A DNA stretch of 64,000 nt. It comes from an uncultured Candidatus Saccharibacteria bacterium (GTDB lineage Bacteria > Patescibacteriota > Minisyncoccia > Phycocordibacterales > SBAW01). Shown piece by piece: positions 31,917 through 62,315 of this stretch. Made by a program: the position numbers and the translations under genes. Every line of letters begins with the position of its first letter. Positions within the stretch are counted from its first letter, which is position 1. Location of the stretch: the NCBI GenBank assembly GCA_964355655.1, contig CAYHDT010000001.1, forward strand, positions 21,588 to 85,587. Direction: 5' to 3'. The notes under the pieces are model-generated. The model had not been told where the DNA came from, searched no databases, and saw only the letters and a list, made by a program, of their open reading frames with translations.

Positions 31917-32684
31917 ATGCAAGAAACTGCCTCATCCCTTATAGCCTTGGGCCTCACTCCTACCGAAGCGGCCGTCTACCTTGCGGGCCTCTCCTACGAG
32001 TCGGTCACGGTCCAGGACCTGGTTCGGTCGACCAAGGTCAAGCGGCCCACTATTTACCACGCGCTCTCGCGATTGCAGGAGCGCGGGCTCGCCGCAGAAA
32101 AGCGCGTGGGCGAGCGGCTGCGCTTTTATATGTCGCCGCCCCAGAACCTCCATGTATTAGTAGAGGCGCAAAAGCAGCGGGTTGTCGCGCAGGAGAAGCT
32201 GCTCCAGGAGCTCCTGCCCTCTTTGTCCGCCCGGCAAAAGCGGGTCAAGCAAGACGGCGTAGGTGTTGTGCACTACAGTGGCATCGAGGGGATGAAGATG
32301 GTGATGGACATGGCTTTTTACTGCAAGACCAAGCGCTGGGATGTTATCGCCCCCTTTAACAACTTCCTTCGCGAGTACGACTCGGAGTATGCCAAGCAGT
32401 ACTTGCAGTCGCGCAAGTATCACGGCATCATCTCGCGCACTCTGTGGGAGAACACCAAAGATGGGAAACCCCTTTCTGAAGAAGAGAGGAGCGAGCGCAA
32501 TCCGCGGCTCATGCCCTGGGTCATGCACGGCAAGTTTAAGTCGATGATGGTACTTTTTGACGATAAGGTCGCTGTCTTTTCCCCGTATGACAAACTTTCC
32601 GCGGTGCTCATCACCAGCACAGAACTGCACGCGCTCTTCGCGTCGATGTTCGAAGGACTGTGGGAATTTTCGGAGCGATATTAA
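31917..32684 (+). CDS. TrmB-family transcriptional regulator (paralog 1 of 4).
   Basis: N-terminal wHTH LGLTPTEAAVYLAGL..VQDLVRSTKVKRPTIYHALSRLQERGL, and a C-terminal effector-binding domain. Confidence 0.75.
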   Translation: MQETASSLIALGLTPTEAAVYLAGLSYESVTVQDLVRSTKVKRPTIYHALSRLQERGLAAEKRVGERLRFYMSPPQNLHVLVEAQKQRVVAQEKLLQELLPSLSARQKRVKQDGVGVVHYSGIEGMKMVMDMAFYCKTKRWDVIAPFNNFLREYDSEYAKQYLQSRKYHGIISRTLWENTKDGKPLSEEERSERNPRLMPWVMHGKFKSMMVLFDDKVAVFSPYDKLSAVLITSTELHALFASMFEGLWEFSERY

Positions 32685-32757
32685 AAGATATTGTATAAAA
32701 TACACCACCGTGCTACATTGTGGTGGAACTAGTTCTCCAACAGGAAAGGATTCTGCT

Positions 32758-33294
32758 GTGGACCTCAAACGGTTTATCCGCAATATCCCCGACTTCCCCA
32801 ACCCGGAGATTATGTTCCGGGATGTGTCTACTCTGCTTCAAAATCCTGCGGCTCGCCGCCAAGTAATTAAGGATTTTGTCGCAGCGTGGGAGGGACATGT
32901 TGACGTCATCGTGGGCCTCGAATCGCGGGGGTTTATTTTCGGCAGCATTCTTGCCGACAGGCTAGACCTCCCCTTTGTCATGATCCGCAAGAAGGGCAAG
33001 CTCCCGGGCGAGGTCATTAGTCAAGCCTACGGGCTCGAGTACGGCAGCGATATCTTCGAGATCCAGGTCGACGCTTTTGCTCCCGGTGCGCGCGTGCTGA
33101 TTGTCGACGATCTGCTCGCCACCGGCGGCAGTGCGGCTGCGGCTGCGGCTCTCATTAAAAAGGCCCGCGGCACGGTTGCCGGCTGCGCCTTTGTGATTGA
33201 GCTGCGCGAGCTCAATGGAGCGGCCAACCTCCCTGGGCTCAGCATCCAAACCCTCGCCGTCTATAAGAAGGAAGACGCTCTCACGGCGGCGTAA
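32758..33294 (+). CDS. apt: Adenine phosphoribosyltransferase.
   Basis: PRPP-binding motif VLIVDDLLATGGSA. GTG start at 32758 preceded by an AGGAAAGGA RBS. Confidence 0.85.
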   Translation: MDLKRFIRNIPDFPNPEIMFRDVSTLLQNPAARRQVIKDFVAAWEGHVDVIVGLESRGFIFGSILADRLDLPFVMIRKKGKLPGEVISQAYGLEYGSDIFEIQVDAFAPGARVLIVDDLLATGGSAAAAAALIKKARGTVAGCAFVIELRELNGAANLPGLSIQTLAVYKKEDALTAA

Positions 33295-33336
33295 GTCGTT
33301 GCCCAAGGCTCCGGAATTTCCGGAGCCTTTTTCTTT

Positions 33337-34926
33337 TTATTGTTTCTTCTCGCGGTACTGCAAGGCCTCCAGCACATGGCTTTCGTTTATATCTTCGGTG
33401 TAGTCGAGGTCGGCGATGGTGCGCGCGACTTTTATGACTCGGTGGAATGCGCGCGGACTAAGCGCCATGCGGGTTCCCGCCTTTTCCAGCAGCTCGCGCA
33501 CTTTTGTTGAAAGCGGTATGAGGTCATCCAGCTCACGCGGAGAGAGGTCGCTGTTGGTCTTGCCAGGATGCTTGGTTTTTGAAAATCTTTTTTTCTGCGC
33601 TTCGCGCGCTTTGAGCACGCGCGCTCGTGCCGCGCGTGTTTGCGCACCTTCGGTATCGCGTTTGCCCAACTCGCCAAGCTCTACCGGCCCCATCACGCTC
33701 CACAGGTCGATACGGTCGGCAATCGGGCCGGAGATTTTGCGCCGATATCGCTCTAGGCTCATAGGCGTGCAGGTGCAGGCAACTTCCGGATGCCCGTAGT
33801 TGCCGCAGGGGCATGGGTTCATTGCCGCCACCAGCGTAAACCGCGCGGGAAATTGCGCCGTGCCTTTGGCGCGCGACACTGAGATGACGCGGTCCTCCAT
33901 CGGCTGGCGCAGAGCCTCGATCACGCGCCTCTCAAACTCGGGGAACTCGTCTAAAAACAATACGCCGCGGTGCGCGAGCGTCGCTTCGCCGGGGCGCGGG
34001 TTGGCGCCCCCGCCGACTATCGATACGTACGAGCTGGTGTGGTGCGGGCTGCGGAACGGCGGCATGGTCAAAAGTTCTCCGCGCAAAACTCCCGCAACCG
34101 AGTGTATCGAGTTTACCTCCAATACGTCGTCGAAAGACAGTGGCGGGAGTATTGAAGCGAGTGCCCGTGCCAGCATGGTCTTGCCTGTGCCGGGTGGCCC
34201 CGACAGTCCTAAATTGTGCCCGCCGGCCGCCGCGATAATCGCGGCGCGTTTTGCCGACTCTTGTCCGCGGATATCCTCAAAGGCAAACTGCGACTCGCCG
34301 AAGTCGTAAGAGAGCTGGGTAGGCGCAGCGGGTTTGAGCCGGCTGCCTAAGGACCGTCCTTTGGAGCCCTGGTTTAAGGACGGTCCTTTTCCGGCCGGAC
34401 CTTTCTTGGTATTCAAATGCTCTATCACTTGCCCGAGGGTCTCCGCGCCGTACACCACTATCCCCTGTACCAGCGCCGCCTCGGCGACATTTTCCATCGG
34501 GACAAAGACCGCCTTTTTCTTTTTGCGCTTGGCCTCGGCCACCAGCGGCAAAATTCCGCGCACTGGCTGGAGCGCACCGTCGAGCGACAGCTCGCCTACA
34601 AATAAATATGGGTCGGGGTCAAACTTGATGTCGCCCGCGGCTAAAAGGTATGACAAAGCGATAGGCAGGTCGAACATCGGTCCCTCTTTTTTTAAATCTG
34701 CAGGCGCGAGCGATATGACAGTCTTCTCGTTCTTTTGTTTTGGCGACTTAAAACCCGCGTGTTTAATGGCGGAGGCTACCCTATCCCAAGCCTCTTCTAC
34801 CGCTTTGTCGGGCAACCCGATGATATCGAATTTATGTAATTGTCCCGCTGAAATATCCGTCTCGACTGATACTATATACGGCGTCAAAACGCTCGTTTGC
34901 GCCCCAAACACCTTGGCGTAATGCAT
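33337..34926 (-). CDS. comM: YifB/ComM-family Mg-chelatase-like AAA+ ATPase.
   Basis: Lon-like N-terminal domain, AAA+ Walker A GPPGTGKT, and a C-terminal ChlI-like domain. Confidence 0.9.
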   Translation of the reverse strand: MHYAKVFGAQTSVLTPYIVSVETDISAGQLHKFDIIGLPDKAVEEAWDRVASAIKHAGFKSPKQKNEKTVISLAPADLKKEGPMFDLPIALSYLLAAGDIKFDPDPYLFVGELSLDGALQPVRGILPLVAEAKRKKKKAVFVPMENVAEAALVQGIVVYGAETLGQVIEHLNTKKGPAGKGPSLNQGSKGRSLGSRLKPAAPTQLSYDFGESQFAFEDIRGQESAKRAAIIAAAGGHNLGLSGPPGTGKTMLARALASILPPLSFDDVLEVNSIHSVAGVLRGELLTMPPFRSPHHTSSYVSIVGGGANPRPGEATLAHRGVLFLDEFPEFERRVIEALRQPMEDRVISVSRAKGTAQFPARFTLVAAMNPCPCGNYGHPEVACTCTPMSLERYRRKISGPIADRIDLWSVMGPVELGELGKRDTEGAQTRAARARVLKAREAQKKRFSKTKHPGKTNSDLSPRELDDLIPLSTKVRELLEKAGTRMALSPRAFHRVIKVARTIADLDYTEDINESHVLEALQYREKKQ

Positions 34927-34945
34927 CCCCAGATTCTACTATGAG

Positions 34946-35200
34946 TTATTCATACAGCTCCGCGTGGGTACCTATGGCAATAAAATTGAGTGAGCCGTCG
35001 GGATACTTCTCGTAGATAAGGCGGAAGTCGCCCGTGATGTTTATGCTCCGGCAGCCTGCATAGACACCGTGTAAGAGATGATTGTTCAATGCAGGGTCGA
35101 ATTCATTTTGCAGAAAAAGCGCCACTCGTGCCTTTGTTTTGAGATGCAACGATTTAGACAATTTTTTGTACTGTCTGCGAAAGCGGCTCGAATAATGCAT
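34946..35200 (-). CDS. RelE/ParE-family type II toxin.
   Basis: 84 aa, with FDPALNNHLL...GDFRLIYE motifs. The antitoxin gene is immediately upstream. Confidence 0.7.
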   Translation of the reverse strand: MHYSSRFRRQYKKLSKSLHLKTKARVALFLQNEFDPALNNHLLHGVYAGCRSINITGDFRLIYEKYPDGSLNFIAIGTHAELYE

Positions 35201-35206
35201 GGAGGG

Positions 35207-35476
35207 CTATTTATTGAGCGACTTAAACATCTCTTCTACATTTCGGTACGGTCCGTGCGCTTTTCCTGCCGCAAATTCCCTGCGCGCTTCGTCTATTATT
35301 TTGCGGGTGCGGGCATTGGGCACCAAGGGTACCGTGAGCTCAAGTCGCTGGTCCTCGGCGAACTTACGAAGTCCCGCGTTGACTACGAGCGAGAGCGGCA
35401 CCCCCATCTTTTTGGCGGTCTTGCGGGCACGGTCGCGCACATCCTTATCCACTTTGATACTGATAACAGTTTTCAT
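35207..35476 (-). CDS. RelB/DinJ- or ParD-like antitoxin.
   Basis: 89 aa, RHH-like N-terminus (KTVISIKVDKDVRDRARKTAKKMGV). There is a 6-nt gap to the toxin gene. Confidence 0.65.
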   Translation of the reverse strand: MKTVISIKVDKDVRDRARKTAKKMGVPLSLVVNAGLRKFAEDQRLELTVPLVPNARTRKIIDEARREFAAGKAHGPYRNVEEMFKSLNK

Positions 35477-35604
35477 ATAACCAAAGTATATACTATGGTA
35501 GCATTAAATCAAGGAGACCCGAAATCTGATGTTGTAGCAAAAATAGAACCGGCGGCCCGCCCGGAAATTTTCTGCGTTCCTGGAAACTTCGTTTTACGGA
35601 GCCT

Positions 35605-35919
35605 CTACTCCATGTGGAGCCGGCACGTAGCGGCCGCGGGGTTTGCTTCAAGGCGGTCGTTCTCTATTTTTTCTCCGCATTCCTCGCAAAAGCCGTAGGT
35701 GCCGGCGGCCATGCGTGCCATAGCGGCGGTTATTTCTTTTTTGCGCGCCAATAGAGTCGCGGTCTCGGACGCGTGCTCCTCGCTCTCCTCCATCCGGTCG
35801 GCCAACTCGTCGGGCTCGGTCGCGGTCGGATCAATATCTTCGTGTCCAAGGTCGGCAAGCTCCTGCACCACGGTATCCAGCTCCTCCTCCAGCTTCATTT
35901 TTAATTCGTCGTTTGTCAT
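35605..35919 (-). CDS. DksA/TraR-family C4 zinc-finger protein.
   Basis: C-terminal CEECGEKIENDRLEANPAAATCRLHME four-Cys motif after an acidic coiled-coil. Confidence 0.75.
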   Translation of the reverse strand: MTNDELKMKLEEELDTVVQELADLGHEDIDPTATEPDELADRMEESEEHASETATLLARKKEITAAMARMAAGTYGFCEECGEKIENDRLEANPAAATCRLHME

Positions 35920-36037
35920 CCCGTTAGAAGTTTAAATATATAAAATTACTAAATAAAATTAAATCCCATTATTTTGTTTACCTGACTTCTAACGGGATCA
36001 TATTTAAAAGAGTATACACTACCTATCCTGGCCGGGG

Positions 36038-39323: not shown

Positions 39324-39337
39324 ACTTTAGCAAGAAA

Positions 39338-39366
39338 GCCCTGTCTCCGCTAGGGAGACCAGGGCT
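39338..39366 (-). promoter_or_regulatory. Stem-loop in the pnp leader / NYN-gene terminator region.
   Basis: GCCCUGGUCUCC...GGAGACAGGGC hairpin between the NYN gene stop and the pnp start. An RNase III-processed leader hairpin occupies the analogous position in E. coli (established knowledge, used here as analogy). Confidence 0.4.
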
Positions 39367-39398
39367 TTCACTTGTATAAAACTTATTTTACGGAGCCT

Positions 39399-40064: not shown

Positions 40065-40156
40065 ATATAAATAACTAACTTAATAACGATGAAAACAACT
40101 GGAACGGCGCAAAACAAAAAATGCCTCCCCTATAATACACCCGAAGGCGCAAAAGA

Positions 40157-40432: not shown

Positions 40433-40506
40433 AGTATCACACCCGCATAAATTGCGCAAGGGGTATGGGTGTGGTGTAACCAAGATGAAGAAAAACGACC
40501 CGGGTA

Positions 40507-43856: not shown

Positions 43857-44144
43857 ATGAAACATGCATTTAATGCTCAGTTGCAGGTGCAATTTCTCAA
43901 GCAGGGAAAGTACACTGTTGCCTACTCACCTGCCCTAGATATTTCAACTTCCGGTAAAAACCAAACGCAGGCGCGCAAGCGTTTTGCCGAGCTCGCGAAC
44001 ATCTTTATACGCGAAATAATGGAGAGGGGTACGGCACACCAGATACTCACAGAGCTGGGCTGGACTCATCGTGCCCATGCCGGTTGGGCGCCACCTAAAA
44101 TGACTAAAAGCCCCGTGTCTGTACGCATCCCTGTCGCCGCGTAA
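43857..44144 (+). CDS. HicB-like antitoxin.
   Basis: 95 aa, YTVAYSPALDISTSGKNQTQARKRFAE matches the HicB N-terminal fold pattern. Immediately upstream of hicA. Confidence 0.55.
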   Translation: MKHAFNAQLQVQFLKQGKYTVAYSPALDISTSGKNQTQARKRFAELANIFIREIMERGTAHQILTELGWTHRAHAGWAPPKMTKSPVSVRIPVAA

Positions 44145-44150: not shown

Positions 44151-44378
44151 ATGGCCCGTATTGGGACTATTCATTGGAAGAAGTTCGAAAAGTTTCTTCT
44201 TGCCGTGGGTTGCTCTTTTGAACGCGAGGAAGGAGACCATCGCATTTATTGGAAAGAAGGATTAAAAAGACCGATAGTGGTGCCCCGCGACACCCTCCCG
44301 CCTTTTATTGTGTTGAACAATCTGCGAACTTTGGGCGTATCGCGTGACGAGTATTTAAAAATCATCGGCAGAAAATGA
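44151..44378 (+). CDS. hicA: HicA-family mRNA interferase toxin.
   Basis: 75 aa, GDHRIY...PIVVP...IVLNNLRTLGVSRDEY motifs. Confidence 0.7.
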   Translation: MARIGTIHWKKFEKFLLAVGCSFEREEGDHRIYWKEGLKRPIVVPRDTLPPFIVLNNLRTLGVSRDEYLKIIGRK

Positions 44379-44448: not shown

Positions 44449-44696
44449 TACAGGTCTACCTCAACTATCTGCAGGTGGTCGTGCTCTCCTCTTGGCAGGC
44501 TCATTGCATCTTGAGCTTCTTTGTAAGAGTCGCCTGACCTCACCACAAACAGGTGTAGATTTTGCAGCTCGGGGACTGCCTCCGATTCTTCATCCCACGC
44601 GCCCCGAGATTGGTGGGTAATCGTCAGTTTGAGAGTAGCGGCGACGATGAGGTATTTCGTAGTCATAGTGTCCTCCCTGGTTGCGATATTCATCAC
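44448..44696 (-). CDS. Hypothetical protein.
   Basis: 82 aa ORF. Confidence 0.35.
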   Translation of the reverse strand: MMNIATREDTMTTKYLIVAATLKLTITHQSRGAWDEESEAVPELQNLHLFVVRSGDSYKEAQDAMSLPRGEHDHLQIVEVDL

Positions 44697-45000: not shown

Positions 45001-45019
45001 TGTCAAGTTATATTGATGA
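45001..45019. promoter_or_regulatory. TGTCAAGTTATATTGATGA imperfect inverted repeat upstream of TrmB paralog 2, with a TATAAT box at 45031-45036.
   Basis: Shares the TGTCA-N-TGAYR pattern with the sites at 48310, 48355 and 62300. Confidence 0.4.
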
Positions 45020-45066: not shown

Positions 45067-45840
45067 ATGTCAAAAATTATTGATGAAATAGGAAACAAAG
45101 CTTTGTCAGATAAGCTCCAAGAACTCGGTTTGAGCGAAAAGGAGGCTGCTGTGTACTTGGCCCTTTTGCCTCGGCAAGATACGGGTACGAGTGTACTAAT
45201 TAAGACGACGGGTCTACATGGGCAGTTTGTATATGATGCTTTGGCTAAACTGGAGGTCCTAGGTCTTGCCAAACATGTAGTCCAGGCAGGCCGGAAGAAG
45301 TTTTCGGCCAACCCACCCCAGCGCTTACTCTCGCTAATAGAAGAAAAGCGCCTTTCGGCGCAGTCGGTGGCCAAAGAGCTCCAAGCTCGCTTTGCGGGTA
45401 AGCACGAACAGAGCTTCGAAGTCCATCAGGGAGACTCGGCTTTTATTGCACATCAAATGGATCTACTGCGTCGGGCACCGCAGGGCGGCACGTTGGACGC
45501 CATTGCAACCGAGACAGAGCGGTTTCAAAAAACGTTTGAAGAGTATGGCATGTGGGACGAATACTTGCGATTGCAGGTGGAAAAGGAGATAAAGATCCGT
45601 TACTTAGGATCGGAGGCACAGCGGGGCCGTCTGCAAAAGCGTGAGCAAAGCGAACTATCCTGGACCTATAAAATCCTGCCGGGGCAGTCGACCGGCAACA
45701 TCAGTATCGAAGTGCATGCCGAGACGGTCACCTTTGTTACCTACGGCGAGCCGGTACTCTGTTTTACTCTCTCCAGCAAAGAAGTTGCACGAGGCTACCG
45801 TGAGTTTTTCAATTCTGTTTGGGCGTTGGCTAAGAAATAA
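45067..45840 (+). CDS. TrmB-family transcriptional regulator (paralog 2).
   Basis: N-terminal LGLSEKEAAVYLALL wHTH. Confidence 0.7.
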   Translation: MSKIIDEIGNKALSDKLQELGLSEKEAAVYLALLPRQDTGTSVLIKTTGLHGQFVYDALAKLEVLGLAKHVVQAGRKKFSANPPQRLLSLIEEKRLSAQSVAKELQARFAGKHEQSFEVHQGDSAFIAHQMDLLRRAPQGGTLDAIATETERFQKTFEEYGMWDEYLRLQVEKEIKIRYLGSEAQRGRLQKREQSELSWTYKILPGQSTGNISIEVHAETVTFVTYGEPVLCFTLSSKEVARGYREFFNSVWALAKK

Positions 45841-45857: not shown

Positions 45858-46160
45858 CTAATGCAGGTTCTCCGGAGATTTTTTGTAGCTCCGTATTTTG
45901 TTAAGGAGTTCTTTTGCCGCAGCCAGATTTTTTGCATCAAAAAGCGCTAGCTCATGGGAATGCGCGCTATCTTCAAAATAGTCGCTAAAATGGGTCGAGA
46001 GTCCGTCTTCATTCCACTGTTTCATCAGAGCATTGCCGGCAAGGTCCGGGTATGCTGCTTGGGCGAGCGCAATCTGCGCTCTATTTCTTATGAGCATCAT
46101 GTCCGGAGGCGGAGGCTGCCCCTGCGACTGTTCCTGCTGTACCCTCTCCATACCTGTCAT
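45858..46160 (-). CDS. Hypothetical protein.
   Basis: 100 aa. Confidence 0.4.
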   Translation of the reverse strand: MTGMERVQQEQSQGQPPPPDMMLIRNRAQIALAQAAYPDLAGNALMKQWNEDGLSTHFSDYFEDSAHSHELALFDAKNLAAAKELLNKIRSYKKSPENLH

Positions 46161-46374
46161 ATCCTAAGCATATCAAATTCCTGTGTTGCGCAAACTCGAT
46201 AAGCCAACCAGTAATGACAAGCTTAATAGAGTCCTCGAATTTACGCGTCGAGGAGCCGCGCCCTTTGCGGGAGTACTTCTTTTTGTCGCAGACCACGCGG
46301 TTTTTGTACCGAGGGTCGGCGAGCACGCGTGCCGCATCACTGCGGCGCTTCGGGGCTTGGATGGTGATTTGCAT
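46081..46374 (-). CDS. Small basic protein (MQITIQAPKRRSDAARVLADPRYKNRVVCDKKKYSRKGRG...). Weak resemblance to ArfA-type ribosome rescue factors.
   Basis: Strong RBS AGAGGAAAG 6 nt before the ATG at 46374. Overlaps a neighbouring ORF by 38 nt. Confidence 0.3.
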   Translation of the reverse strand: MQITIQAPKRRSDAARVLADPRYKNRVVCDKKKYSRKGRGSSTRKFEDSIKLVITGWLIEFAQHRNLICLGYDRYGEGTAGTVAGAASASGHDAHKK

Positions 46375-46795
46375 AATTTCTTTCCTCTGCATCGGCACAC
46401 CACGATTGATGTGTCGAAAAAAGGAGGCGACACTGGGTCGCCTCGACGAATCCTGCATGGCGGAACACCTGGGTCTTTTTGACGGACCCGTCGGGGAGTT
46501 TTTCGTCCCGCGACTCCCGAACCGAGAAGGCGTAGAGAACTTTTATTCCCCGCTCTTGCAACGCCGCCTGCAACACCGGCATAAAGAACGGGGCACCGCC
46601 GATCATTACCGAATCAAAGCCATCCTGGCGGGCCATCTGCGCGAGTGTTTGTGCATAAGCCTTGAGCCGGATTTGATCAGGCAGCTCATCGAACGTAATG
46701 AGTGCCTGTACGAGCACCTTGTCGGCAGGCTCGACGACGCCGGCAGCAATTTGGTCAGCAGTCGCTGCGTGCTGGGTCAAATTTAAAATTCGCAT
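46337..46795 (-). CDS. Hypothetical protein.
   Basis: 152 aa, no motif recognised. Confidence 0.5.
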   Translation of the reverse strand: MRILNLTQHAATADQIAAGVVEPADKVLVQALITFDELPDQIRLKAYAQTLAQMARQDGFDSVMIGGAPFFMPVLQAALQERGIKVLYAFSVRESRDEKLPDGSVKKTQVFRHAGFVEATQCRLLFSTHQSWCADAEERNYANHHPSPEAPQ

Positions 46796-46799
46796 GAAA

Positions 46800-48130
46800 G
46801 AACCCCTTGTTTCTCAATAAGCCAACGAACCATTCGCGGGCTGAGTAAAGAGGGCGAGCACGAAGGCTCGCCCGGAAGTTTGAACAATCACTGAAAGAAC
46901 AAAATTAATGGGTGGTAGCGCTAGGTCTTCGCCACCATGATGCTGTCACTCCCCGAAGCTTGTGGAGAGTCGGACCGCAGCTGTTGGGCTGCCAGCACCT
47001 TTGATCACACATCCCGATGTCGCCACCGGGTTAGAGGAATGTGTCTCCCTCTTATCCGGACTGAGCTTATTGGCTCCAGGGCTGGCCGGCCCCTTTACCA
47101 TGCGGTTGGTTGACCGCTCCCCCTTTGCACCACCAGCTTCCCAGACCGATGGATTGGGGTATGATCCGACGCTCATGTCCTTACCTCAGGTTTAACCATT
47201 CAACAGGATCTGTGCTGATCATGTGATTCTGGTTGGTACTGAGGAGGTCCCCACCACAGGCTTGCGGCCCATAGCAGTTTCCACCAACTTTCTGCCCGTA
47301 TACCGTTGGCGACGGCACACAAACTTCTGACTCCCTTTGCCCCGCCAAGGGCTCGGACCGTTGCATAGTGCAAGCCTTGCGACTCGACACCCGGGAGAAA
47401 ACCCTTTTCATCGGGCTCCGTTTAGCTTCGGTGGAGATTTGGATGCTTGCGCACCCGGCCGTAGCGGAATCAACACTACAACCTATCAACCCCTTGCGGG
47501 GGTATCTGGCTCTCCACAGCCATAACATTGGCGCCGAATGTTCGGCGGCACTGTTATGGCAATGGAGCATTTTCAAACAACTTCTCAATCAACCCACGAT
47601 CCGCCAGTAGGCAGGCTCACGAGCTGAGTAGAGGTGCGGATATAAAGGCTCCGCACTAGTGCCCTCTCACTTTGAGCGACGCCACTCGGGGCGGCGGCCG
47701 GTGGGGGTGGTAATAAGGCGCCGCTCGAAAGCGGCCTGTCCCCTATCAACACCGCACCGCTTGGGCCGTCCGTCCGCCCGGAATCCCTTTTGATGGAGGA
47801 ATTTCGTCGCGGCGTCCTCCAGGGTGTGAGACCCTGCATTCGTCCGGCTATTCATCATTTGTAACCCCCCTGGTTGTGTGATGATTGAAAGATCTAATTC
47901 TCTTTTGTTTGAAAAAGAATTGCAGGAGTGTGGGCTGCCCTGGCAACCCTTTGGAGCCCAGCTGGGGTCCGCGGCTACTCCAAGCCACACCTAGCCACGC
48001 GGCCGCGCGCTAGGATTACGATGAGGTCCTCTTTTTATGGAACCCCTCCTCCCAAGTCCTTGCGGTCTCGGGCCCCTCTCAGCCATCGTTCGTGGCTGCT
48101 TGGTACGCTTTTCTAGAGCGCCCAAGGGAG
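46800..48130. ncRNA. Long ORF-free, GC-rich region with many hairpins. Candidate structured non-coding RNA(s) or a degraded element. Its class could not be identified.
   Basis: No protein-like ORF on either strand. The tracked ORFs in this region have RNA-like R/S/P/G composition. GNRA-type hairpins are present (CCCCUUGCGGGG at 47490-47506, GCCGCUCGAAAGCGGC at 47735-47752). Confidence 0.35.
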
Positions 48131-48309
48131 GTAATGGAATCAATACGATCCCAGCCGCCCTGCCCAAATACAAACCGGCGCCCCATATGTATTGCAGGGC
48201 GGGCTGAGTAGCCTGTGGCGTATCTAGAGCAAGGCGAAGGAATCACATTCTTCGCACTTTTTCAGTATTAAACTGTCAAAGTTCGTCCCCGGGACCCCTC
48301 GCCTCCGGG

Positions 48310-48327
48310 TGTCAAACTTGATTGACA
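48310..48327. promoter_or_regulatory. TGTCAAACTTGATTGACA inverted repeat, an operator-like site.
   Basis: Perfect TGTCAA/TTGACA arms. One of three such sites in 48270-48380. Confidence 0.45.
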
Positions 48328-48354
48328 AAGCCATTATAGTCAGTTCTTTAAATT

Positions 48355-48372
48355 TGTCAAGCGGTTTTGACA
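48355..48372. promoter_or_regulatory. TGTCAAGCGGTTTTGACA inverted repeat, an operator-like site.
   Basis: TGTCA-N8-TGACA. Confidence 0.45.
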
Positions 48373-48757
48373 GATTGAAAACTTACATACAGAAAATAGC
48401 CTTAAATATAGCCATTTTTTACATATTGATATTCAATCGAGTATGACATAAAAATAGTGTTGATAGCCAGCTGCTTGACTTTATGTGCTGACTATAGTAA
48501 CCTAATTAGCGACCGGGGTGGTACTCATCCTGGCCCGGGTTTTCTGCCCAGCCCGCAGTCAATTGGGCTTGTACCTCGGCCGGCAAAGTGCCGGTTAGAC
48601 TCAGGAGCTACTTATGAAGAAGCTCAAACTGTTCGGTGACGGCTGGTAAGCCTTTAGTCGGACAATGTGGAATCGATCTCAGCGTCTGAAGTTTCGTCGC
48701 TGTAGGTTGATATCTCGAAAAGCAGAAGCGCACCGCAGTCAAAAGGTGCAAGACGTC

Positions 48758-48806
48758 GGGCGGTTGCAAGGTTCAAACCTCTGCAACCGCCCTACTTGTT
48801 TTTATG
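48758..48806. terminator. Rho-independent terminator, shared with the convergent TrmB gene.
   Basis: GGGCGGUUGCA...UGCAACCGCCC hairpin followed by UUGUUUUUA on the plus strand. The stop of the minus-strand TrmB gene abuts it. Confidence 0.6.
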
Positions 48807-49548
48807 CCTCAGCTATTTCCCAAAGCGTATTAAATATGGCTCTAAAGCTGTCTGCGATTTCTTTGCTGTCTATGATGATGCCGAATACCGGTCCTTTGAG
48901 TGCCATAACGGCGACGCAGTTTCTATAAACAAAAATGTCGGAACTCATGGGCATGCGGTCGGGTGATATATATCTGCGCTCGGTGTTTGGCGGTATCTCG
49001 GAACCCGACTTGCCTCCCTGGCGTGTATAGATGTAGCGCGAGTGGATTCCGTTCCTAACTCTTTTATCAGAAAAATCGTCCAGTTCCTTTTGTGTGTATA
49101 TGGTTGCCAAGGAGTCCCGAGAGAACAAAATAAATATTTCCTCCCCTTTTTTTAAGGTTAAAACCTCTTCGCGCATAGCGGTAATTCCTTCTTTGCCGCT
49201 AAAGAACCTCACCAGCGGTCGCTCGCCGGCGCCTTCGAACTTTTTGAGCAGCTCAGGCAGAAAGTCGTTGAGTTCAAGCTCCTTGGCCTCGAACTCTTTT
49301 TTCTTTAGTTCAAAAATACGCTTCAGATATTCAGGAGATTCTGGGGCAAAGTATGTTTTCTTACCCTCTTCGTAGGTGCTCATGAGACCCTTCTTCATCA
49401 AGCTTTCCAGTTGCACATAGGCGGTTGAGCGCACTATTTTTGCTTGCTTAGCTAGCTGGTCGGCCGTGGCGCGCCCTATTTCCAGAGCGGCAATGTAAAT
49501 TTTGGCCTCTTTTTCCGACAGCCCAACATCCTGGAGCTCTTTTAGCAT
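48802..49548 (-). CDS. TrmB-family transcriptional regulator (paralog 3).
   Basis: Start reassigned to MLKELQDVGLSEKEAKIYIAALEIG (ATG at 49548). The palindrome GTACATTGTAC lies at 49552-49562. Confidence 0.7.
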   Translation of the reverse strand: MLKELQDVGLSEKEAKIYIAALEIGRATADQLAKQAKIVRSTAYVQLESLMKKGLMSTYEEGKKTYFAPESPEYLKRIFELKKKEFEAKELELNDFLPELLKKFEGAGERPLVRFFSGKEGITAMREEVLTLKKGEEIFILFSRDSLATIYTQKELDDFSDKRVRNGIHSRYIYTRQGGKSGSEIPPNTERRYISPDRMPMSSDIFVYRNCVAVMALKGPVFGIIIDSKEIADSFRAIFNTLWEIAEA

Positions 49549-49904
49549 GAGTACATTGTACGGCACAAAACCAAATTTTGGGTACGAATAACCCCCGCAA
49601 TGGAGGTGGCGGGGGTTTGTGTGTAAGCCTTCAGAACCGGCTTTCAAGAGTTAGGATTGCCTCTTGTTTTCAATTTATTGTCGAAGTTTGTCGGTAATCC
49701 GCAATATCTCGACAGTGAGTTTAGAAGGTTACACATTGGTGCAGCTGCAATGCACAGAAAGAACATTTTTGTTATGTCGTTCGCGACAGGGTAGAACGCG
49801 CTCGCACAACATTGGTCTGAAGTAACTATACTCCCATCAAGGACAGTGTAAAGGACATAGGTGGGGATAACCTGCCTCTGCCGGCAAGGCGGGCTGTCCT
49901 TTAG

Positions 49905-53900: not shown

Positions 53901-53902
53901 TC

Positions 53903-55699: not shown

Positions 55700-55700
55700 T

Positions 55701-56333: not shown

Positions 56334-56367
56334 AAACCCCGAGCCGAAATTTGGGCTCGGGGTTATG

Positions 56368-56895: not shown

Positions 56896-57337
56896 GGTTG
56901 CACCCTTTTGTTACTTCCAAGGAATACAACGTCCGATGATTACCGGTAGTTTCTAGTTACTCTTTAACATCGCTTTAAGCGGGACGGCGGGGGACTGTTT
57001 GACAAGAATACGCGTCATGCTAAGCTCTAAGTATGCAACTTGCGCAGGCAATTAATCGTCGTCACTGGCTTATCTTTTCGAAAGCCGGTGTTTGTCGCGC
57101 GTAAATTTTTAAAATAAAGTTTAAGAGACAGGAACCGGCTTTTGAAGAAGCCGGTTTTGCGTTACTACGCAAAAAACAAACAGAGGAGGGCTTGATGCAC
57201 CGTCACTGGCGTTAATTGCCCGGCCGTAATGCCGACAGGCTGCTACGGTATTCCTGAATAAGATTCGGAGAGGGCTGACATCCCGCTCGGCAACAGAAAA
57301 AAACTGTCACCCGTTCTTTCAACCTGCGGAGTGAAAC

Positions 57338-57535
57338 ATGCGCAAGCAAGAGTTTCCAGAAGACTCCACTGGCGAAGTGTATGGTCCCGACGGTCCGGTA
57401 CGACGCACGCGTGCTCACACAATCGCGGGCTATACTGAGCCGGTTTTGTCCCACGCGGGCCGGCACCAAGCCATGATGGACGAAGAGGGCGCCTGGCTCA
57501 ACGCGGCCTTTATGGAGCCCGATGAGCCATTGTAG
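57338..57535 (+). CDS. Small hypothetical protein (65 aa).
   Basis: RBS GGAGTGAAAC before the ATG. Immediately followed by a strong terminator. Confidence 0.4.
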   Translation: MRKQEFPEDSTGEVYGPDGPVRRTRAHTIAGYTEPVLSHAGRHQAMMDEEGAWLNAAFMEPDEPL

Positions 57536-57541
57536 AAAAGT

Positions 57542-57570
57542 AACCGCCGCAACACTGCGGCGGTTTTTTT
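57542..57570. terminator. Bidirectional rho-independent terminator.
   Basis: CCGCCGC-AACACU-GCGGCGG flanked by AA and UUUUUUU. It serves both the plus-strand small ORF and the minus-strand protease gene. Confidence 0.75.
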
Positions 57571-58693
57571 AATTCCCGCTCAACACCGCTTCAAGTTGCG
57601 CGGTGAGGCCCGGAGCTATTTTTGTATTAAAATCGGCCGCTTTTGCGGCAAGGTCGCCGGAGAGCAAACCGACAATGCCTCCTTTGCCGGCAGCTATCAG
57701 CGTGTCGTCTATGTGGGCGAGCGAAACTGCACGCAGGTCGCGCGCATCCGTCGTTGCTCCTGCGGTAGATGTGGTGATAATCCCCGCCAGTTTGCCGTCG
57801 GACAGTCGCACGGCTGCTCCGCCGGAGGAGCCGCCTTGAGAAAGGATGGTACCGCCTATCGAAAAGAGCTCTACGTTGTTGTTGCCGCCGAACGAAAAAA
57901 GCTGTGTTACATACGTGACGGCCGAACTCGCATAGAGATTTTTTTGAACGGTCTGGCTGCCCAAAAACCCCGCTGGGTACGAGGCAAGCAGCATCTCCTC
58001 GCCGAGGCCAACCAGCCCGCGGTTCATCTCCATCCGGGAGAATGTCGCCGGCAACGAGGCGGCGGGGTCTGTCCTGCCGGTAATAAACAGGAAGGCATAG
58101 TCATTTTCTCCCGTGCCGGTTGCCTGGACAGCTTTCAATTGCGCGGCGTTTGCGGCGACCCATGCCGGCGGCGTGTATAAAAGAGTTGCGGTGTAGCGCT
58201 CTTGTGCGGGCGAGCCGACGCGTACAGTGCAGGTAATGTTGTCCGGAGTAAGGTAGTTGCGCAATAGGAAATACTGCGCGATGTGCGCGTTAGTAAGTAT
58301 GACGCCGCGATTGTCGATTATGATGCCGCTGCCGCTTATCCCGTTGATGCCTGTTCGCGGCAGACACAAAATATTTACCAGCGCCGAGCGGGTTTCTTCA
58401 TTTATTTGTTCCTGAGACTTCAGAGGCTGTGCTACAGGAGGAGTTGTCACAGGCGCTGGAACAGGAGGTGCTACCGGTTTTTGAGCAATGGGTGCCGGAG
58501 AGGACTTTATCGTGCTCGTTGTGGCTACGGGCGCGGTGGGGAATTGTGCGGTAGTGGTAGCGGCCGGTTGCGCGGGCAGGGGCGTGTTTGATATTTCTTC
58601 CGACAACAGCCCCGAAAATATTGATCCAAAAAACAGCAACAATGAGGCAATGATGCCAAAAGTCATAGTGAGGATGCCTTGTAGAACTTCCAT
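57569..58693 (-). CDS. Trypsin-like serine protease (S1C/HtrA-like catalytic domain without an evident PDZ domain), membrane-anchored.
   Basis: N-terminal TM, Pro-rich linker, GSGIIIDNRGVILTNAHI (His), and GGSSGGAA (Ser) motifs. Confidence 0.75.
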   Translation of the reverse strand: MEVLQGILTMTFGIIASLLLFFGSIFSGLLSEEISNTPLPAQPAATTTAQFPTAPVATTSTIKSSPAPIAQKPVAPPVPAPVTTPPVAQPLKSQEQINEETRSALVNILCLPRTGINGISGSGIIIDNRGVILTNAHIAQYFLLRNYLTPDNITCTVRVGSPAQERYTATLLYTPPAWVAANAAQLKAVQATGTGENDYAFLFITGRTDPAASLPATFSRMEMNRGLVGLGEEMLLASYPAGFLGSQTVQKNLYASSAVTYVTQLFSFGGNNNVELFSIGGTILSQGGSSGGAAVRLSDGKLAGIITTSTAGATTDARDLRAVSLAHIDDTLIAAGKGGIVGLLSGDLAAKAADFNTKIAPGLTAQLEAVLSGN

Positions 58694-58764
58694 GTGCGGG
58701 ATGGGAGAATCGAACTCCCAACTACAGTTTGGAAAACTGTCGTTTTGCCACTAAACTAATCCCG
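58694..58764 (-). tRNA. tRNA-Gly (anticodon TCC).
   Basis: The reverse complement gives GCGGGAU...UUUCCAA...GGGAGUUCGAUUCUCCCAUCCCGCA. Confidence 0.8.
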
Positions 58765-58824
58765 CTTGCCCTTTCGAAACTTTAGCGAAGTAGGGCGTAC
58801 CCCGTTATACTAAACCATATCAAC

Positions 58825-58851
58825 GAAAAAATCCCCTGATGGGGATTTTTT
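58825..58851. terminator. Bidirectional terminator downstream of hup.
   Basis: AAAAAAUCCCC-UGAU-GGGGAUUUUUU. Confidence 0.7.
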
Positions 58852-58868
58852 CGTCTCGAGAGGATATT

Positions 58869-59144
58869 TTACTGCTTGACGGCCTCCTTCAGTGCCTTAG
58901 CGGCCTGGAACTTAGGCACGCGCATGGTGGGGACCTGTACCGTGGCGCCGGTGCGGGGGTTGCGCGCGGTGCGGGCGGCCCTCATTTTGGTCTTAAAGAT
59001 GCCAAGGCCTGCGATGGAGACATCGTTGCCTTTCTTAAGTTCGCTAACGATAGAGTCGATCATCGACTCCACGGCGCGCTCCGCATCCGCCTTGGTGGTG
59101 CCAAGTACCGTGTGCACCTTTTCCGCAATATCCTGTTTATTCAT
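58869..59144 (-). CDS. hup: DNA-binding protein HU.
   Basis: MNKQDIAEKV...GFGxF...RNPRTG signature. Confidence 0.9.
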   Translation of the reverse strand: MNKQDIAEKVHTVLGTTKADAERAVESMIDSIVSELKKGNDVSIAGLGIFKTKMRAARTARNPRTGATVQVPTMRVPKFQAAKALKEAVKQ

Positions 59145-59309
59145 AGCGTTAATTAATAGCTTGTAATGGGAAGCCCCTGTAGGGGGAAGTATACCCCTCT
59201 CAAAAAACCTTGCAATAGAGCCATTGCGGATAGATAAGCGGTAAAAATGGCTCTATTGTAGGGGCCAAAGGAGTACAAATAAAAACTCCCCGGGAGGGGA
59301 GTGGTGGGT

Positions 59310-59729
59310 TTATGGAATCAGTTGACCCCGAAATGCGTTGTCCAGTAGTCTTTCGATTTCTTTCATTGGCAGGATTTCACCGGCGGCAAAACTTGAACCG
59401 CTCGCCGAAAACAAATGTTCGCTTGCGGTCGCAGCCTCGATCCAGCCATCGTTTTGAAGGAGCAGGCCGGTTCTGCTTTGGTAAAATCCCACTCCGACGA
59501 ACGCCTGCGTTACTTTTTTCGTGGAGAGAGCTTTTTGGGCAAAATAGTGAGCCGTCTGCCCGATCGCCAGCTCAGTTCGCGGTTTAAAGAATTGTGTCCG
59601 TACCACCCTGCATTCGATAAGGGCGAAAGTCCCCTCGGACAGATACTTCAACACCGCTTTTTGCACGGTCTGCAGCCCGCCTGGAATAAGAGCCGGATTG
59701 GCGACGACGACGACTTTCTTTGCTTCCAC
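59310..59729 (-). CDS. Hypothetical protein.
   Basis: 139 aa. Confidence 0.5.
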   Translation of the reverse strand: MEAKKVVVVANPALIPGGLQTVQKAVLKYLSEGTFALIECRVVRTQFFKPRTELAIGQTAHYFAQKALSTKKVTQAFVGVGFYQSRTGLLLQNDGWIEAATASEHLFSASGSSFAAGEILPMKEIERLLDNAFRGQLIP

Positions 59730-59777
59730 TAATGCCTCCTATGTGGCAAGTCTTTGCAGACAGTAACAAGAACGCTC

Positions 59778-61307
59778 TTACCGCGCAAATTCGATCGCGC
59801 GGGTTTCGCGGAAGACGATAACCTTTATTTCGCCGGGATATTTAAGCTCATTTTCTATGCGCAGCGCTATTTCGCGCGCTACTTCGCGGGCCTGGAAGTC
59901 GGTCATCTTGTCGGGTCTGACAAAGACCCGCACCTCGCGGCCGGCGCTTATGGCGTAGGACTTTTCGACGCCCTCAAACGAGTTGGCGATAGCCTCGATG
60001 TCAGAGAGGCGTTTGATGTACTGCTCGACAGAGTCGCGCCGCGCGCCTGGGCGGCCACCCGAAATAGCGTCGGCCACTTGGACAATGTAGGACTCCGGTG
60101 TTTCATACGGGTATTCTTCGTGGTGGGCCTGCATGGCTTTTATTACCTCCTCTTGTACTCCGAATTTTTGGAGGATGCGGCGGCCTATCTCGACATGCGT
60201 CCCTTGTACCTCGTGGTCGAGCGCCTTGCCGATGTCATGCAGGAGCGCGCCGGCGCGTGCAACAGCCGGGTTGGCGCCGACCTCCTCGGCTATCATGCCC
60301 GCGATGTGCGCCATCTCCACCGAGTGCTGCAGCACGGACTGCCCGTAGCTGGTGCGGAAGTGGAGTCTGCCGAGTATCATAAGCAGTCGCGGGTCGAGGT
60401 TAAGCACGCCCACCTCAAAAGCCGCGGCCTCGGCCTTTTCTTTAATAATTTTGTTTACGTCCGCTTTGGCCTTCTCCACCGTTTCTTCAATTTTTGCCGG
60501 CTGGATGCGTCCGTCGATAATCAGGTTTTCAAGAGCGACGCGGGCAATGGCGCGGCGCAGCGGGTCGTATGAAGAAAAGAGTATAGAGCCCAGCGTGTCG
60601 TCGATAATAACCTCTACCCCCGTTTCACGCTCAAACGCTTTGATGTTGCGGCCCTCTTTGCCGATAATCTTACCCTTAAGGTCATCGTTGGGGATAGTAA
60701 TAGCGGTCGCCATGGTGTCGGAGGCTACCGAGTTGCCGAGGCGGTGTATGGCGGTAACGAGGATATCTTTAGCTTTGCGGTCGAGTCGGTCCATGCCATC
60801 GCGCTCGAGCTTGGTGACACGCATCATCATATCTTCGCTGTTTTCGCGCTCGAGCTCCGCATAAAGTTGCTCCTTGGCCTGCTCTTTAGAGAGCCCGGCG
60901 ACTTTTGCCAGCTCGGTGGCGCGCTCCTCTAGCAATGCTTCGGCGCGCTCTTTTATTTGGCGGACTTCCTCTATTTTTCCTTTGACCGCCTGGACTTCCG
61001 AGTCGAGTTCTCCCTGCTTTTTGTCCAGCGACTCCTCACGCTTAAAGACGCGCTCTTCCTGGCGCGTTACTTTCTCTTCTTTTTCGGCAATCGTGGTCTC
61101 GAGCGCGGAAAGGACCTCGGCGGCCTTGTTCTGCGCCTCTCCGGTTATTTTTTTAGCTTCTTCTCTGGCGTCAAGCAAGATGTGCTTGACTTCGACTTCT
61201 ATCGAACCTTTACGCGATAAAACGAGCAGCCATCGGAATACAAATCCTATTACCGCACCCCCGAGCGCGGAGAGCGCCAGCAGGGCAAACACTATTTTTA
61301 ATGACAT
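59778..61307 (-). CDS. rny: Ribonuclease Y.
   Basis: N-terminal TM, coiled-coil, KH domain, HD domain (HDIGK). Confidence 0.9.
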   Translation of the reverse strand: MSLKIVFALLALSALGGAVIGFVFRWLLVLSRKGSIEVEVKHILLDAREEAKKITGEAQNKAAEVLSALETTIAEKEEKVTRQEERVFKREESLDKKQGELDSEVQAVKGKIEEVRQIKERAEALLEERATELAKVAGLSKEQAKEQLYAELERENSEDMMMRVTKLERDGMDRLDRKAKDILVTAIHRLGNSVASDTMATAITIPNDDLKGKIIGKEGRNIKAFERETGVEVIIDDTLGSILFSSYDPLRRAIARVALENLIIDGRIQPAKIEETVEKAKADVNKIIKEKAEAAAFEVGVLNLDPRLLMILGRLHFRTSYGQSVLQHSVEMAHIAGMIAEEVGANPAVARAGALLHDIGKALDHEVQGTHVEIGRRILQKFGVQEEVIKAMQAHHEEYPYETPESYIVQVADAISGGRPGARRDSVEQYIKRLSDIEAIANSFEGVEKSYAISAGREVRVFVRPDKMTDFQAREVAREIALRIENELKYPGEIKVIVFRETRAIEFAR

Positions 61308-61492
61308 ATTGGGATTTCATGAAATATATATTGAGAACGCCCTTACAATACCAGACAAATTACTTAACCGCAAATTGGCTCGTACGGAGAAAAAGTAGGT
61401 TTTCGGGAGTGTTTCGCAGGCTGACGAGCCGAGAATCAGCAAATTTCCAGCAGGAAATTATGCGACTCCCGAAGGCCTAGCTTTTTCGGAGA

Positions 61493-61560
61493 TTTATTTC
61501 TTAGCCGGGACGGCTTGGTGGGTCAAAATGTCGTCCACAATGCCGTACTTTTTAGCCTAT
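61493..61560. repeat. Direct repeat copy A: a duplicated clpP 3' end (last about 20 codons plus stop).
   Basis: 66 of 68 nt identical to 63692..63759. Copy A still encodes ...[20 protein letters not shown] on the minus strand. Confidence 0.8.
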
Positions 61561-62295
61561 TTCCGGCCCCAACCTTTCCCAAAGTTGTTGCCACACCACG
61601 CGCATAGTGTCGGCCAGATGCCGGTTTTCTACCAAGACGGCAAAAGGGGACGGACCCTCCAGGTCAATAAGGGCAACCTTGTCACCATAGATATTTATAT
61701 CGGTTTTGAACTTGGGCGCGGTAATAAACTTGGTTTTACGCAAAAATTTTAGATTGTCTTTTGAAAAGTTGCGCGCAAAGGGTACATCTCGAGAGATGGA
61801 GCGGATAAGTATGTCGCGCCGCGCGCGCTCCTTTGGGAACCAATCAAAAATCCTAGGCGGCAACTCCGCCCGCAGGTCTTCCAAATCTTCATACGCCAGT
61901 ATCTCCTTTTTTTCTCGCAACATGTCCGCGTACACCTCCTCGACCCCCTGCATTCCGTCATAAAAAGTGACGCGAGGTTTTTTTGCGGATTTGTTATTGA
62001 TTGCGAGCAAGTCCGGCAGTATGCGCTCAAGCCCGCTGAGGCGGACTTTTTGCATCTCAACCAACCGCTCTGGATTGACCGCGCTGTAGACGTGCCGCTT
62101 GCCGCGCTTGGTTTCGTTGATATATCCGCGCTCGCGTAGCTCATCAATGAAAGTATAGATAGTGGAGCGGTTAACCCCGGACTTGCCGGCAAGAGCAAGC
62201 ATGGTCGCCTCGCCGAGCTCTAATGCCGCCAAATAAACTTTGGCCTGCATCGAGGTCATGCCGAGCAAAGGGAGCAAATTCTCGTCTATTTCCAC
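61552..62295 (-). CDS. TrmB-family transcriptional regulator (paralog 4).
   Basis: N-terminal LPLLGMTSMQAKVYLAALELG wHTH. GTG start at 62295. Confidence 0.7.
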   Translation of the reverse strand: MEIDENLLPLLGMTSMQAKVYLAALELGEATMLALAGKSGVNRSTIYTFIDELRERGYINETKRGKRHVYSAVNPERLVEMQKVRLSGLERILPDLLAINNKSAKKPRVTFYDGMQGVEEVYADMLREKKEILAYEDLEDLRAELPPRIFDWFPKERARRDILIRSISRDVPFARNFSKDNLKFLRKTKFITAPKFKTDINIYGDKVALIDLEGPSPFAVLVENRHLADTMRVVWQQLWERLGPEIG

Positions 62296-62299
62296 AATA

Positions 62300-62315
62300 T
62301 GTCAATTTTATGACA
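62300..62315. promoter_or_regulatory. TGTCAATTTTATGACA perfect inverted repeat immediately upstream of TrmB paralog 4.
   Basis: TGTCA-N6-TGACA, 5 nt upstream of the start codon. Confidence 0.5.

Follow-up and report, generated by a model that had tools for sequence, protein, structure and literature searches.

The subject of this work is a 64-kb stretch of DNA, referred to below as the window, from an uncultured Candidatus Saccharibacteria bacterium (assembly GCA_964355655.1, contig CAYHDT010000001.1, positions 21,588 to 85,587). It has a GC content of about 53% and includes the genes for RNase Y, PNPase, a CCA-adding enzyme and ComM. Four further genes, designated here T1 to T4, encode regulators of the TrmB family, and inverted repeats with TGTCA half-sites are found at or near promoters in their surroundings. 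A first-pass annotation of this DNA, made by reading the sequence, had proposed that the four regulators are paralogs that share one operator motif and possibly control non-coding RNAs (ncRNAs) rather than sugar operons. The genome is of the Paceibacteria type and near Adlerbacteria/Kaiserbacteria, and the homologs of these regulators are labelled Patescibacteria nearly without exception. Patescibacteria, also known as the Candidate Phyla Radiation (CPR), represent a large part of bacterial diversity and, to our knowledge, almost nothing is known about their gene regulation. Literature searches returned no paper tying TrmB-type regulators to Patescibacteria or the CPR, and nothing on large ncRNAs in Patescibacteria.

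The window was compared with 155 related loci drawn from genome and metagenome collections. Each regulator encoded in these loci was assigned to the nearest of the four window paralogs. Protein family and fold, motif positions with respect to promoter hexamers, motif conservation, gene linkage statistics and RNA covariation were determined directly.

Results

Four TrmBL2-like regulators

T1 (31917–32684, plus strand, 255 amino acids), T2 (45067–45840, plus strand, 257 amino acids), T3 (48802–49548, minus strand, 248 amino acids) and T4 (61552–62295, minus strand, 247 amino acids, GTG start) all belong to the TrmB family. Their matches to Pfam PF01978, the N-terminal winged helix-turn-helix (wHTH) domain of TrmB, had E values of 1.3e-11, 4.4e-9, 4e-14 and 5e-14, respectively (range 4e-9 to 4e-14), and scores of 36–53 bits, above the gathering cut-off of 25.6. 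The proteins are of similar size (247–257 amino acids) and share 21–26% pairwise identity in alignments that extend from end to end and include a common C-terminal domain. The four genes and their paralogy, as proposed in the first-pass annotation, were thus borne out. T2 has orthologs with 62–84% identity, and orthologs of T3 were found across Patescibacteria. The long form of T4 is backed by orthologs of 247–248 amino acids. The start codon of T3 was corrected from the mechanically listed TTG at 49647 to the ATG at 49548 because its orthologs have 248–251 amino acids and a −10 box, TACAAT, lies 6 nt upstream of this ATG. Since a −10-like box is present 5–7 nt upstream of the ATG in nearly all T3 orthologs with at least 50% identity, T3 is probably translated from a leaderless mRNA.

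No second Pfam domain was detected in T1 to T4 at E ≤ 0.01, including the sugar-binding domain TrmB_C. None of the four therefore has the composition of TrmB in the strict sense, which includes the TrmB_C subdomain and has about 340 amino acids. T3 was modelled with AlphaFold from an alignment of 42 orthologs, with a predicted local distance difference test (pLDDT) score of 90.8. Compared with known structures using Foldseek, this model matched the archaeal TrmBL2 structures over its full length, with eight TrmBL2 chains aligned over 263–275 columns at E values from 3e-14 to 9e-13. The TM-scores were 0.4–0.5, reflecting differences in domain orientation. The C-terminal domain of the model also resembled nucleases of the NucT/phospholipase D (PLD) type, including PLD3. 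In a sequence search of the PDB, the closest proteins of solved structure were TrmBL2 and TrmB, the full-length TrmB (3qph) being a weak match over the N-terminal part only. The T3 model consists of a wHTH domain, a long dimerization helix and a PLD-like C-terminal domain without a sugar-binding barrel, which is the architecture of TrmBL2. The genes adjacent to the regulators or among their putative targets code for the CCA-adding enzyme, RNase Y, small open reading frames (ORFs), a cpYpsA-like protein and a structured RNA; none of them points to control of sugar transport or glycolysis. These results indicated that T1 to T4 are short, TrmBL2-type members of the TrmB family that lack the sugar-binding subdomain, in agreement with the earlier suggestion that they may not control sugar operons.

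TGTCA dyads and the T3-linked promoter

The exact motif TGTCA-N6-9-TGACA occurs three times in the window, at 48310, 48355 and 62300, when 0.10 occurrences were expected, and none of 100 shuffled sequences had three matches. The motif was therefore above chance. The sites at 48310–48327 and 48355–48372 are 18-bp dyads, TGTCAA-N6-TTGACA, and that at 62300–62315, first described as lying at the promoter or start, is an exact 16-bp dyad with an N6 spacer. The other repeats listed in the first-pass annotation stood in part. The third member of the cluster at 48274–48372, taken for a palindrome as well, is a conserved half-site at 48274–48279. The repeat at 45001–45019 is a conserved promoter site, but its sequence at 45001–45018, TGTCAA-N6-TTGATG, falls short of a true palindrome, and a twin of it is present at 45068–45085. 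A position weight matrix (PWM) trained solely on T3-linked dyads from other genomes ranked 48355 (score 27.5), 48310 (17.8), 45068 (14.6) and 45001 (11.4) as the top four positions of the window, while the null maximum averaged 10.4. Instead of the single shared operator motif that had been postulated, there are three related but distinct variants, with TGTCA-N8-TGACA linked to T3, TGTCAA-N6-TTGATG to T2 and TGTCA/TGACA dyads with spacers from N6 to N8 to T4.

The two dyads linked to T3, which we named O1 and O2, are located downstream of this gene on elements of a strong promoter. The minus strand includes TTGACA (48360–48355), a spacer of 16 nt and TATAAT (48338–48333). This sigma-70 promoter (48333–48360) matches the consensus in 12 of 12 positions, which no other sequence does between 44800 and 49950, and fires leftward, away from T3. 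Neither its −35 box nor its −10 box varies among five relatives. O1 (TGTCAAGCGGTTTTGACA, 48355–48372) is an exact dyad, the plus-strand left half of which is the −35 box. O2 (TGTCAAACTTGATTGACA, 48310–48327) is also exact, starts about 5 nt past the −10 box and so lies over the predicted transcription start, spanning the predicted positions +1 to +18. O2 is near-invariant in close relatives, where its half-sites are fully invariant. The distance of 45 bp between O1 and O2 is found again, to the nucleotide, in 7 other T3 loci. The TGTCAA half-site at 48274–48279, CGAACTTTGACAGTTTAATA on the minus strand, is inside the transcribed leader and is conserved in eight of the nine aligned leaders. The first-pass annotation had placed the palindromes upstream of a small rightward transcript; instead, they coincide with the −35 box and the start of a promoter that reads leftward on the minus strand.

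A dyad followed by a −10 box, equivalent to the O1 promoter, is present in T3 loci with 32–81% identity. The linkage was quantified using 112 distinct T3-type genes. Between +741 and +1700 from the T3 start there were 43 exact occurrences of TGTCA-N8-TGACA, while each of the other spacers from N4 to N12 was found at most once. The N8 dyad was absent from 83 kb of T3 coding sequence and occurred once in 276 kb of far upstream sequence. Six T3 genes bear an N8 dyad at their own promoter. Read on the T3 strand, 37 of 41 distinct downstream dyads have a complete TTGACA as their promoter-proximal half, and in 25 of the 41 this half is followed by TAnnnT 16–18 nt further on the same strand. On the opposite strand such a −10 box was seen in 5 of 41 cases, and the distal half reaches TTGACA in just 19 of 41. 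T3 was the sole gene common to the dyad-bearing neighborhoods across the orders of Patescibacteria; its neighbors in other loci include the genes for the CCA enzyme, ClpP and RNase Y, tmRNA and Ro60.

A candidate promoter in the rightward direction, TTGACT-17-TAACCT, was found at 48475–48503 on the plus strand, and its hexamers are conserved in L081 and L087. It would give rise to a transcript of about 290 nt, convergent with T3 and ending at a hairpin (48759–48795) followed by a T-run, the body of which is not conserved. This promoter and its transcript are weakly supported. The putative transcript includes an 11-codon ORF (MKKLKLFGDGW) beside T3, and a 27-nt inverted repeat (44511–44537 and 48601–48627, 78% complementary) joins the region upstream of T2 to the ribosome-binding site (RBS) and start of this ORF.

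Sites at T2, T4 and T1

Two copies of the T2 variant are present at the T2 gene and are the only matches to TGTCAA-N6-TTGATG in the window. Site 1, TGTCAAGTTATATTGATG (45001–45018), is located 5′ of the T2 −10 box and doubles as the −35 box of a promoter that diverges from T2 on the minus strand, with the match TTGACA-17-TACACT. Site 2, TGTCAAAAATTATTGATG (45068–45085), is 67 bp downstream of site 1 and overlaps the T2 start codon. Three T2 orthologs (62–70% identity) retain ATGTCAAG-N6-TTGATGAT 5′ of an extended −10 box, TGATATAAT, together with the copy at the start codon; conservation of site 1 was seen in L095 and L096/L098. Just upstream of the T2 region, a gene at 44151–44378 (plus strand) encodes a HicA toxin domain (E 7e-9) and its 5′ neighbor (43857–44144) is a 95-amino-acid ORF without a Pfam match; the two may form a toxin–antitoxin pair.

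The T4 dyad, TGTCAATTTTATGACA, begins 3 nt past the TATAAT −10 box and ends 4 nt before the GTG start codon. Orthologs of T4 with 69–72% identity (L089, L092 and L093) have TGTCATAAATAGTGACA, TGTCACTAAATACAACA and TGTTGTAAACTGTGACA at the corresponding position, and more distant T4-type genes keep the order −10 box, dyad, start codon. Among 28 T4-type genes, TGTC-N9/10-GACA reached 3.4 occurrences per kb over the 65 nt that precede the start codon versus 0.1–0.35 per kb elsewhere. Footprinting at T1 could make use of two relatives only. The T1 orthologs keep the synteny with a divergent aldolase-II-like gene. Conserved dyads over the −35 box, the −10 box or the transcription start of the regulator's own or an adjacent promoter were therefore found for T2, T3 and T4 and not for T1. 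The association between regulators and operator-like repeats put forward in the first-pass annotation holds, with conservation in orthologous loci, for these three genes, T1 being left with a half-site.

A structured leader RNA

The first part of the region transcribed from the T3-linked promoter is included in a conserved non-coding block (48143–48503) with about 75% identity to its relatives, a level on par with that of the T3 coding sequence. Within it, an alignment of nine distinct sequences identified a structured leader RNA of 108 nt (48142–48249, minus strand), for which RNAalifold predicted a long bipartite stem around two hairpins. In this structure 93.9% of the cells are paired, versus about 44% in slid controls, and nine pairs were changed on both sides, a number matched by none of 500 shuffles. 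The z-score of the minimum free energy (MFE) was −4.0. The leader was assigned to the minus strand because several U-G pairs are conserved, and this assignment agrees with the direction of the promoter. An alternative fold (167–184 with 204–223 in A3) had only 68.9% of its cells paired, no better than shuffles, and the RNAalifold structure was preferred.

Neither the leader nor the intercistronic hairpin described below matched an Rfam 15 family at the gathering score in the window and 14 loci. At more permissive thresholds, Rfam gave no match at E ≤ 10 in 46700–48900, nor did 7 further loci have one at E ≤ 0.5. The possibility that the GC-rich segment 48326–46850 (about 1.45 kb, with many GCAA loops) is one large ncRNA, rRNA or intron was discarded. 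It has no Rfam family, its sequence is conserved only over the first 185 nt or so, and it has at least one conserved small ORF inside.

The general shape and size of the leader are compatible with those of bacterial Y RNAs, which adjoin a Ro60/TROVE gene and have a long terminal stem, an internal loop and 80–130 nt (PMC4201824). A tblastn search of the window found no Ro60/TROVE gene, and no Rfam Y RNA model matched. In three other lineages (L081–L084, L061 and L070) a TROVE/Ro60 gene is located within 3 kb of T3, for example at 2793–4373 in L081, 8316–9629 in L061 and 7924–8949 in L070. L081 has the dyad promoter twice, and the second copy (4759–4827) is aimed at Ro60 across an untranslated leader of about 390 nt, which is a candidate Y RNA region. 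L081 and L082 also have a large serine recombinase beside Ro60.

An array of small ORFs with a repeated hairpin

The content of the region 3′ of the leader varies between close relatives. The first-pass annotation had considered this part of the window free of ORFs; small, real ORFs are nonetheless present between the structured RNA elements, many of them have an RBS, and those of L081, L087 and L080 show synonymous-type variation. An ORF of 63 amino acids (47667–47858, minus strand) is preceded by an AGGGGGG RBS and is conserved in frame with L031 according to tblastx and nhmmer, with no Pfam match. The gene at 46337–46795 (minus strand, 152 amino acids) is cpYpsA/MJ1673-like, with 64% tblastx identity over 122 amino acids to L013 in the minus frame. 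Its syntenic homologs are annotated PF12694/PF27247, and the window protein had no Pfam match at E ≤ 0.01. The plus-strand ORF at 46214–46786 is probably spurious; it lacks a Pfam match and the conservation is in the minus frame. The array also includes a 100-amino-acid ORF (46160–45858, minus strand). The picture that emerges is that of a mixed operon of RNA and small proteins transcribed leftward, and this modifies the earlier idea of ncRNA control. At T3 the promoter does precede a conserved structured RNA, which is part of the mixed operon and not a pure ncRNA, and the sites of T2 and T4 look autoregulatory with no link to an ncRNA.

The ORFs of the array are accompanied by a repeated intercistronic element in which a terminator-like hairpin precedes a second, long and conserved one, UUCAGCUCGCGAA..UCGUGAGCUGAUUGAG (CUUUAYUCAGCYCGCGAA...UCGUGRGYUGAUNGAG in the RNA). 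In the window, all on the minus strand, one copy is found at 47582–47650 (nhmmer E 1.7e-5) and another, with the terminator-like stem, at 46810–46872 (E 7e-12), just upstream of the cpYpsA-like gene. A degenerate third copy, identified by direct reading of the sequence and as repeat D6, is located at 46195–46262, before the ORF at 46160–45858. A total of 41 distinct copies were collected from the window and 13 loci (L126, L118, L108, L085, L087, L101, L069, L006, L013, L004, L012, L080 and L081), with two to six per locus. All of them are on the T3 strand, downstream of T3 and each just 5′ of an RBS; none was found in the upstream flanks of those loci. The long hairpin has 93.7% of its cells paired versus 33–40% in slid controls, covariation is seen in 10 of its 15 pairs, and it is rich in G-U pairs. 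The element may mark a processing site or the boundary of a cassette, or act as a translational operator.

Pfam searches with ten array ORFs from related loci gave no match. A small ORF in the window, MQITIQAPKRRSDAARVLADPRYKNRVVCDKKKYSRKGRG... (about 46215–46390, minus strand), overlaps the 3′ end of the ORF at 46337–46795 and has relatives in the L101 and L108 arrays; it may resemble the motif of the ribosome-rescue protein ArfA, although Pfam gave no match and a sequence search of the PDB found no ArfA. A near-perfect hairpin of 27 bp (47512–47567, 85% complementary, 2-nt loop) is located in an ORF-poor part of the same transcript. L081 (6934–7966), L087 (5792–7172) and L080 (6728–8103) share a block of about 1–1.4 kb that is 84–87% identical, while their T3 genes are less similar. 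This block, which is not in the window, includes a Zn-ribbon-like ORF of 101 amino acids and one of 39 amino acids, and its flanks are about 170 nt of near-invariant non-coding sequence with compensatory changes. In L015, a match to the type III hammerhead ribozyme (6991–7046, 48.7 bits for an Rfam gathering score of 48.5) was found about 700 nt 3′ of the T3-linked dyad promoter of that locus. Elsewhere in the window, the minus strand of 7203–9395 has an ORF of 730 amino acids without a Pfam match.

Discussion

How proteins and sites are paired is inferred here, as are the sign of the regulation, the points where transcription starts and the effector. We hypothesize that T2, T3 and T4 are promoter-occluding repressors, T2 and T4 acting on their own genes and T3 on the adjacent RNA-rich operon, a reading that we regard as reasonably probable. 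The three proteins would be dimeric or tetrameric and would bind TGTCA-type dyads over core promoter elements, so that the bound regulator would exclude RNA polymerase. T3, possibly as a tetramer like TrmBL2, would occupy two N8 dyads 45 bp apart, O1 over the −35 box and O2 over the transcription start, and its target would be the consensus-strength promoter immediately 3′ of its own gene. The transcript gated in this way would consist of the 108-nt leader RNA, variable small ORFs including that of the cpYpsA-like protein, and the repeated intercistronic hairpin. T2 would act through its two TGTCAA-N6-TTGATG sites to repress its own promoter and a divergent small gene, and T4 would repress its own promoter by way of the TGTCA-N6-TGACA dyad that lies 3′ of the −10 box and 5′ of the start codon.

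Several facts weigh against this hypothesis. T1 lacks a dyad and has only a TTGACA half-site (31909–31914), 2 nt before its ATG. TrmBL2 is an abundant archaeal chromatin protein whose DNA binding is largely non-specific, so likeness of fold predicts no sequence-specific binding, and the assignments of regulators to sites rest throughout on conserved linkage. The exact downstream dyad was found in only 29 of the 90 T3 genes with enough downstream sequence; the remaining ones may have degenerate sites or none. The promoter of T3 itself has no dyad in the window, so that T3 is not autoregulated here, and in the distant lineages L003, L007 and L022 the dyad promoter is directed toward T3 and not away from it. 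Finally, the spacer of O2 is as conserved as its half-sites, which suggests extra constraints such as those of an RNA 5′ end or a start-site context.

The sequence TGTCAA is the reverse complement of the −35 consensus, and both O1 and site 1 of T2 fall on −35 boxes. The palindromes might therefore be nothing else than the −35 hexamers of divergent promoters placed back to back, with TTGACA on either strand and no dedicated binding protein, and in L003, L007 and L022 the other half of the dyad does head a promoter as well. Nonetheless, 43 of the 45 downstream cases had the N8 spacing, the T4 dyads and O2 are located 3′ of the −10 box, where a −35 function is impossible, and the asymmetry between the two halves (19 of 41 with a full distal TTGACA, 5 of 41 with a −10 box after it) argues against such an arrangement. 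We consider this explanation very improbable. It is slightly less improbable, although still quite unlikely, that the dyads are the operators of another, unlinked regulator and that the adjacency of TrmB paralogs reflects coincidence or co-regulation. The dyad-free promoter of T3 in the window would be in line with this idea. However, no gene other than T3 is shared by the dyad-bearing neighborhoods across orders, and every group of paralogs is paired with a dyad variant of its own that keeps a fixed place with respect to the regulator gene, which is the usual signature of a transcription factor and its cognate site.

Somewhat more room, within what we still consider unlikely, must be given to a role at the RNA level for O2 and the half-site at 48274, for instance as a 5′-terminal stem-loop that stabilizes the transcript, with O1 as the sole DNA operator. 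O2 corresponds to the predicted first 18 nt of the transcript, both the alignment and the MFE structure give it a hairpin of 6 bp, its spacer is conserved together with the half-sites in close relatives, and the 48274 half-site is within the transcript. On the other hand, O2 shares the TGTCA-N8-TGACA format of O1, its spacer varies freely in L069, L012, L013 and L004, its stem never varies and hence shows no covariation, and the exact 45-bp register suits one protein on both sites. A function of O2 in the RNA is compatible with repression through the same site; the two are not exclusive. The sign of regulation could also be the opposite, because the center of O1, about 37–38 bp 5′ of the predicted start, is near the positions used by class II activators, and T3 might be an activator of this type centered near −38. 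With perfect −35 and −10 hexamers activation should be unneeded, and a second site over the start is typical of repression; we give this possibility hardly any weight. Repression by promoter occlusion is, in our view, the most parsimonious reading.

The closest known system is TrmBL2 of Thermococcales (PDB 5bpd, 5box and 5bqt), which has about 250–264 amino acids, the same three-part architecture and no sugar-binding subdomain, and was both the best full-length structural match (E 3e-14) and the best PDB sequence match. The proteins described here differ from it in that they are bacterial, about 21% identical and linked to specific promoter dyads of 16–18 bp, and these specific dyads would argue for sequence-specific binding. 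TrmB, TrmBL1 and Tgr of Thermococcales and TrmB of Halobacterium have the N-terminal PF01978 domain in common with T1 to T4, as well as palindromic operators of 16–19 bp over promoter elements. They are, however, sugar-responsive proteins with sites such as TATCAC-N5-GTGATA, whereas here TrmB_C was not detected, the half-site is TGTCA and the targets are not genes for sugar uptake or glycolysis. In the layout of the operators, with dyads that cover both the −35 box and the transcription start of a strong sigma-70 promoter and putative autoregulation of T2 and T4, the system resembles LexA and phage repressors that act on two operators. It differs from them in the protein fold and in that T3 is upstream of, and co-oriented with, its target promoter, not divergent. 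The intercistronic RNase III hairpins of phage T7 and integron cassette arrays offer an analogy only, that of a strong promoter, many short cistrons and a recurring structured element; the T3 array is like them in that gene content differs between relatives. Its repeat, unlike attC, is conserved in sequence, and no integrase, attC features or RNase III cleavage came to light, none of them having been tested for.

Taken together, the T3 locus may, as a tentative proposal that we put forward with more doubt than confidence, be an undescribed module present throughout Patescibacteria. Its parts would be a gatekeeper of the TrmBL2 type, a promoter of consensus sequence that bears twin dyads, a new leader RNA that is riboswitch- or Y-RNA-like, and exchangeable small genes, each bounded by a new conserved RNA hairpin that would serve as a signal for processing, translational control or cassette boundaries. 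The two structured RNA elements, the leader and the intercistronic hairpin, are not in Rfam. Annotations of "TrmB" in the genomes of Patescibacteria should not be taken as an indication of sugar sensing. The predicted pairing of a transcription factor with its operator is concrete and conserved from Paceibacteria to genomes labelled Saccharibacteria, and the T3-linked promoter could be assayed in E. coli because it matches the consensus of that organism.

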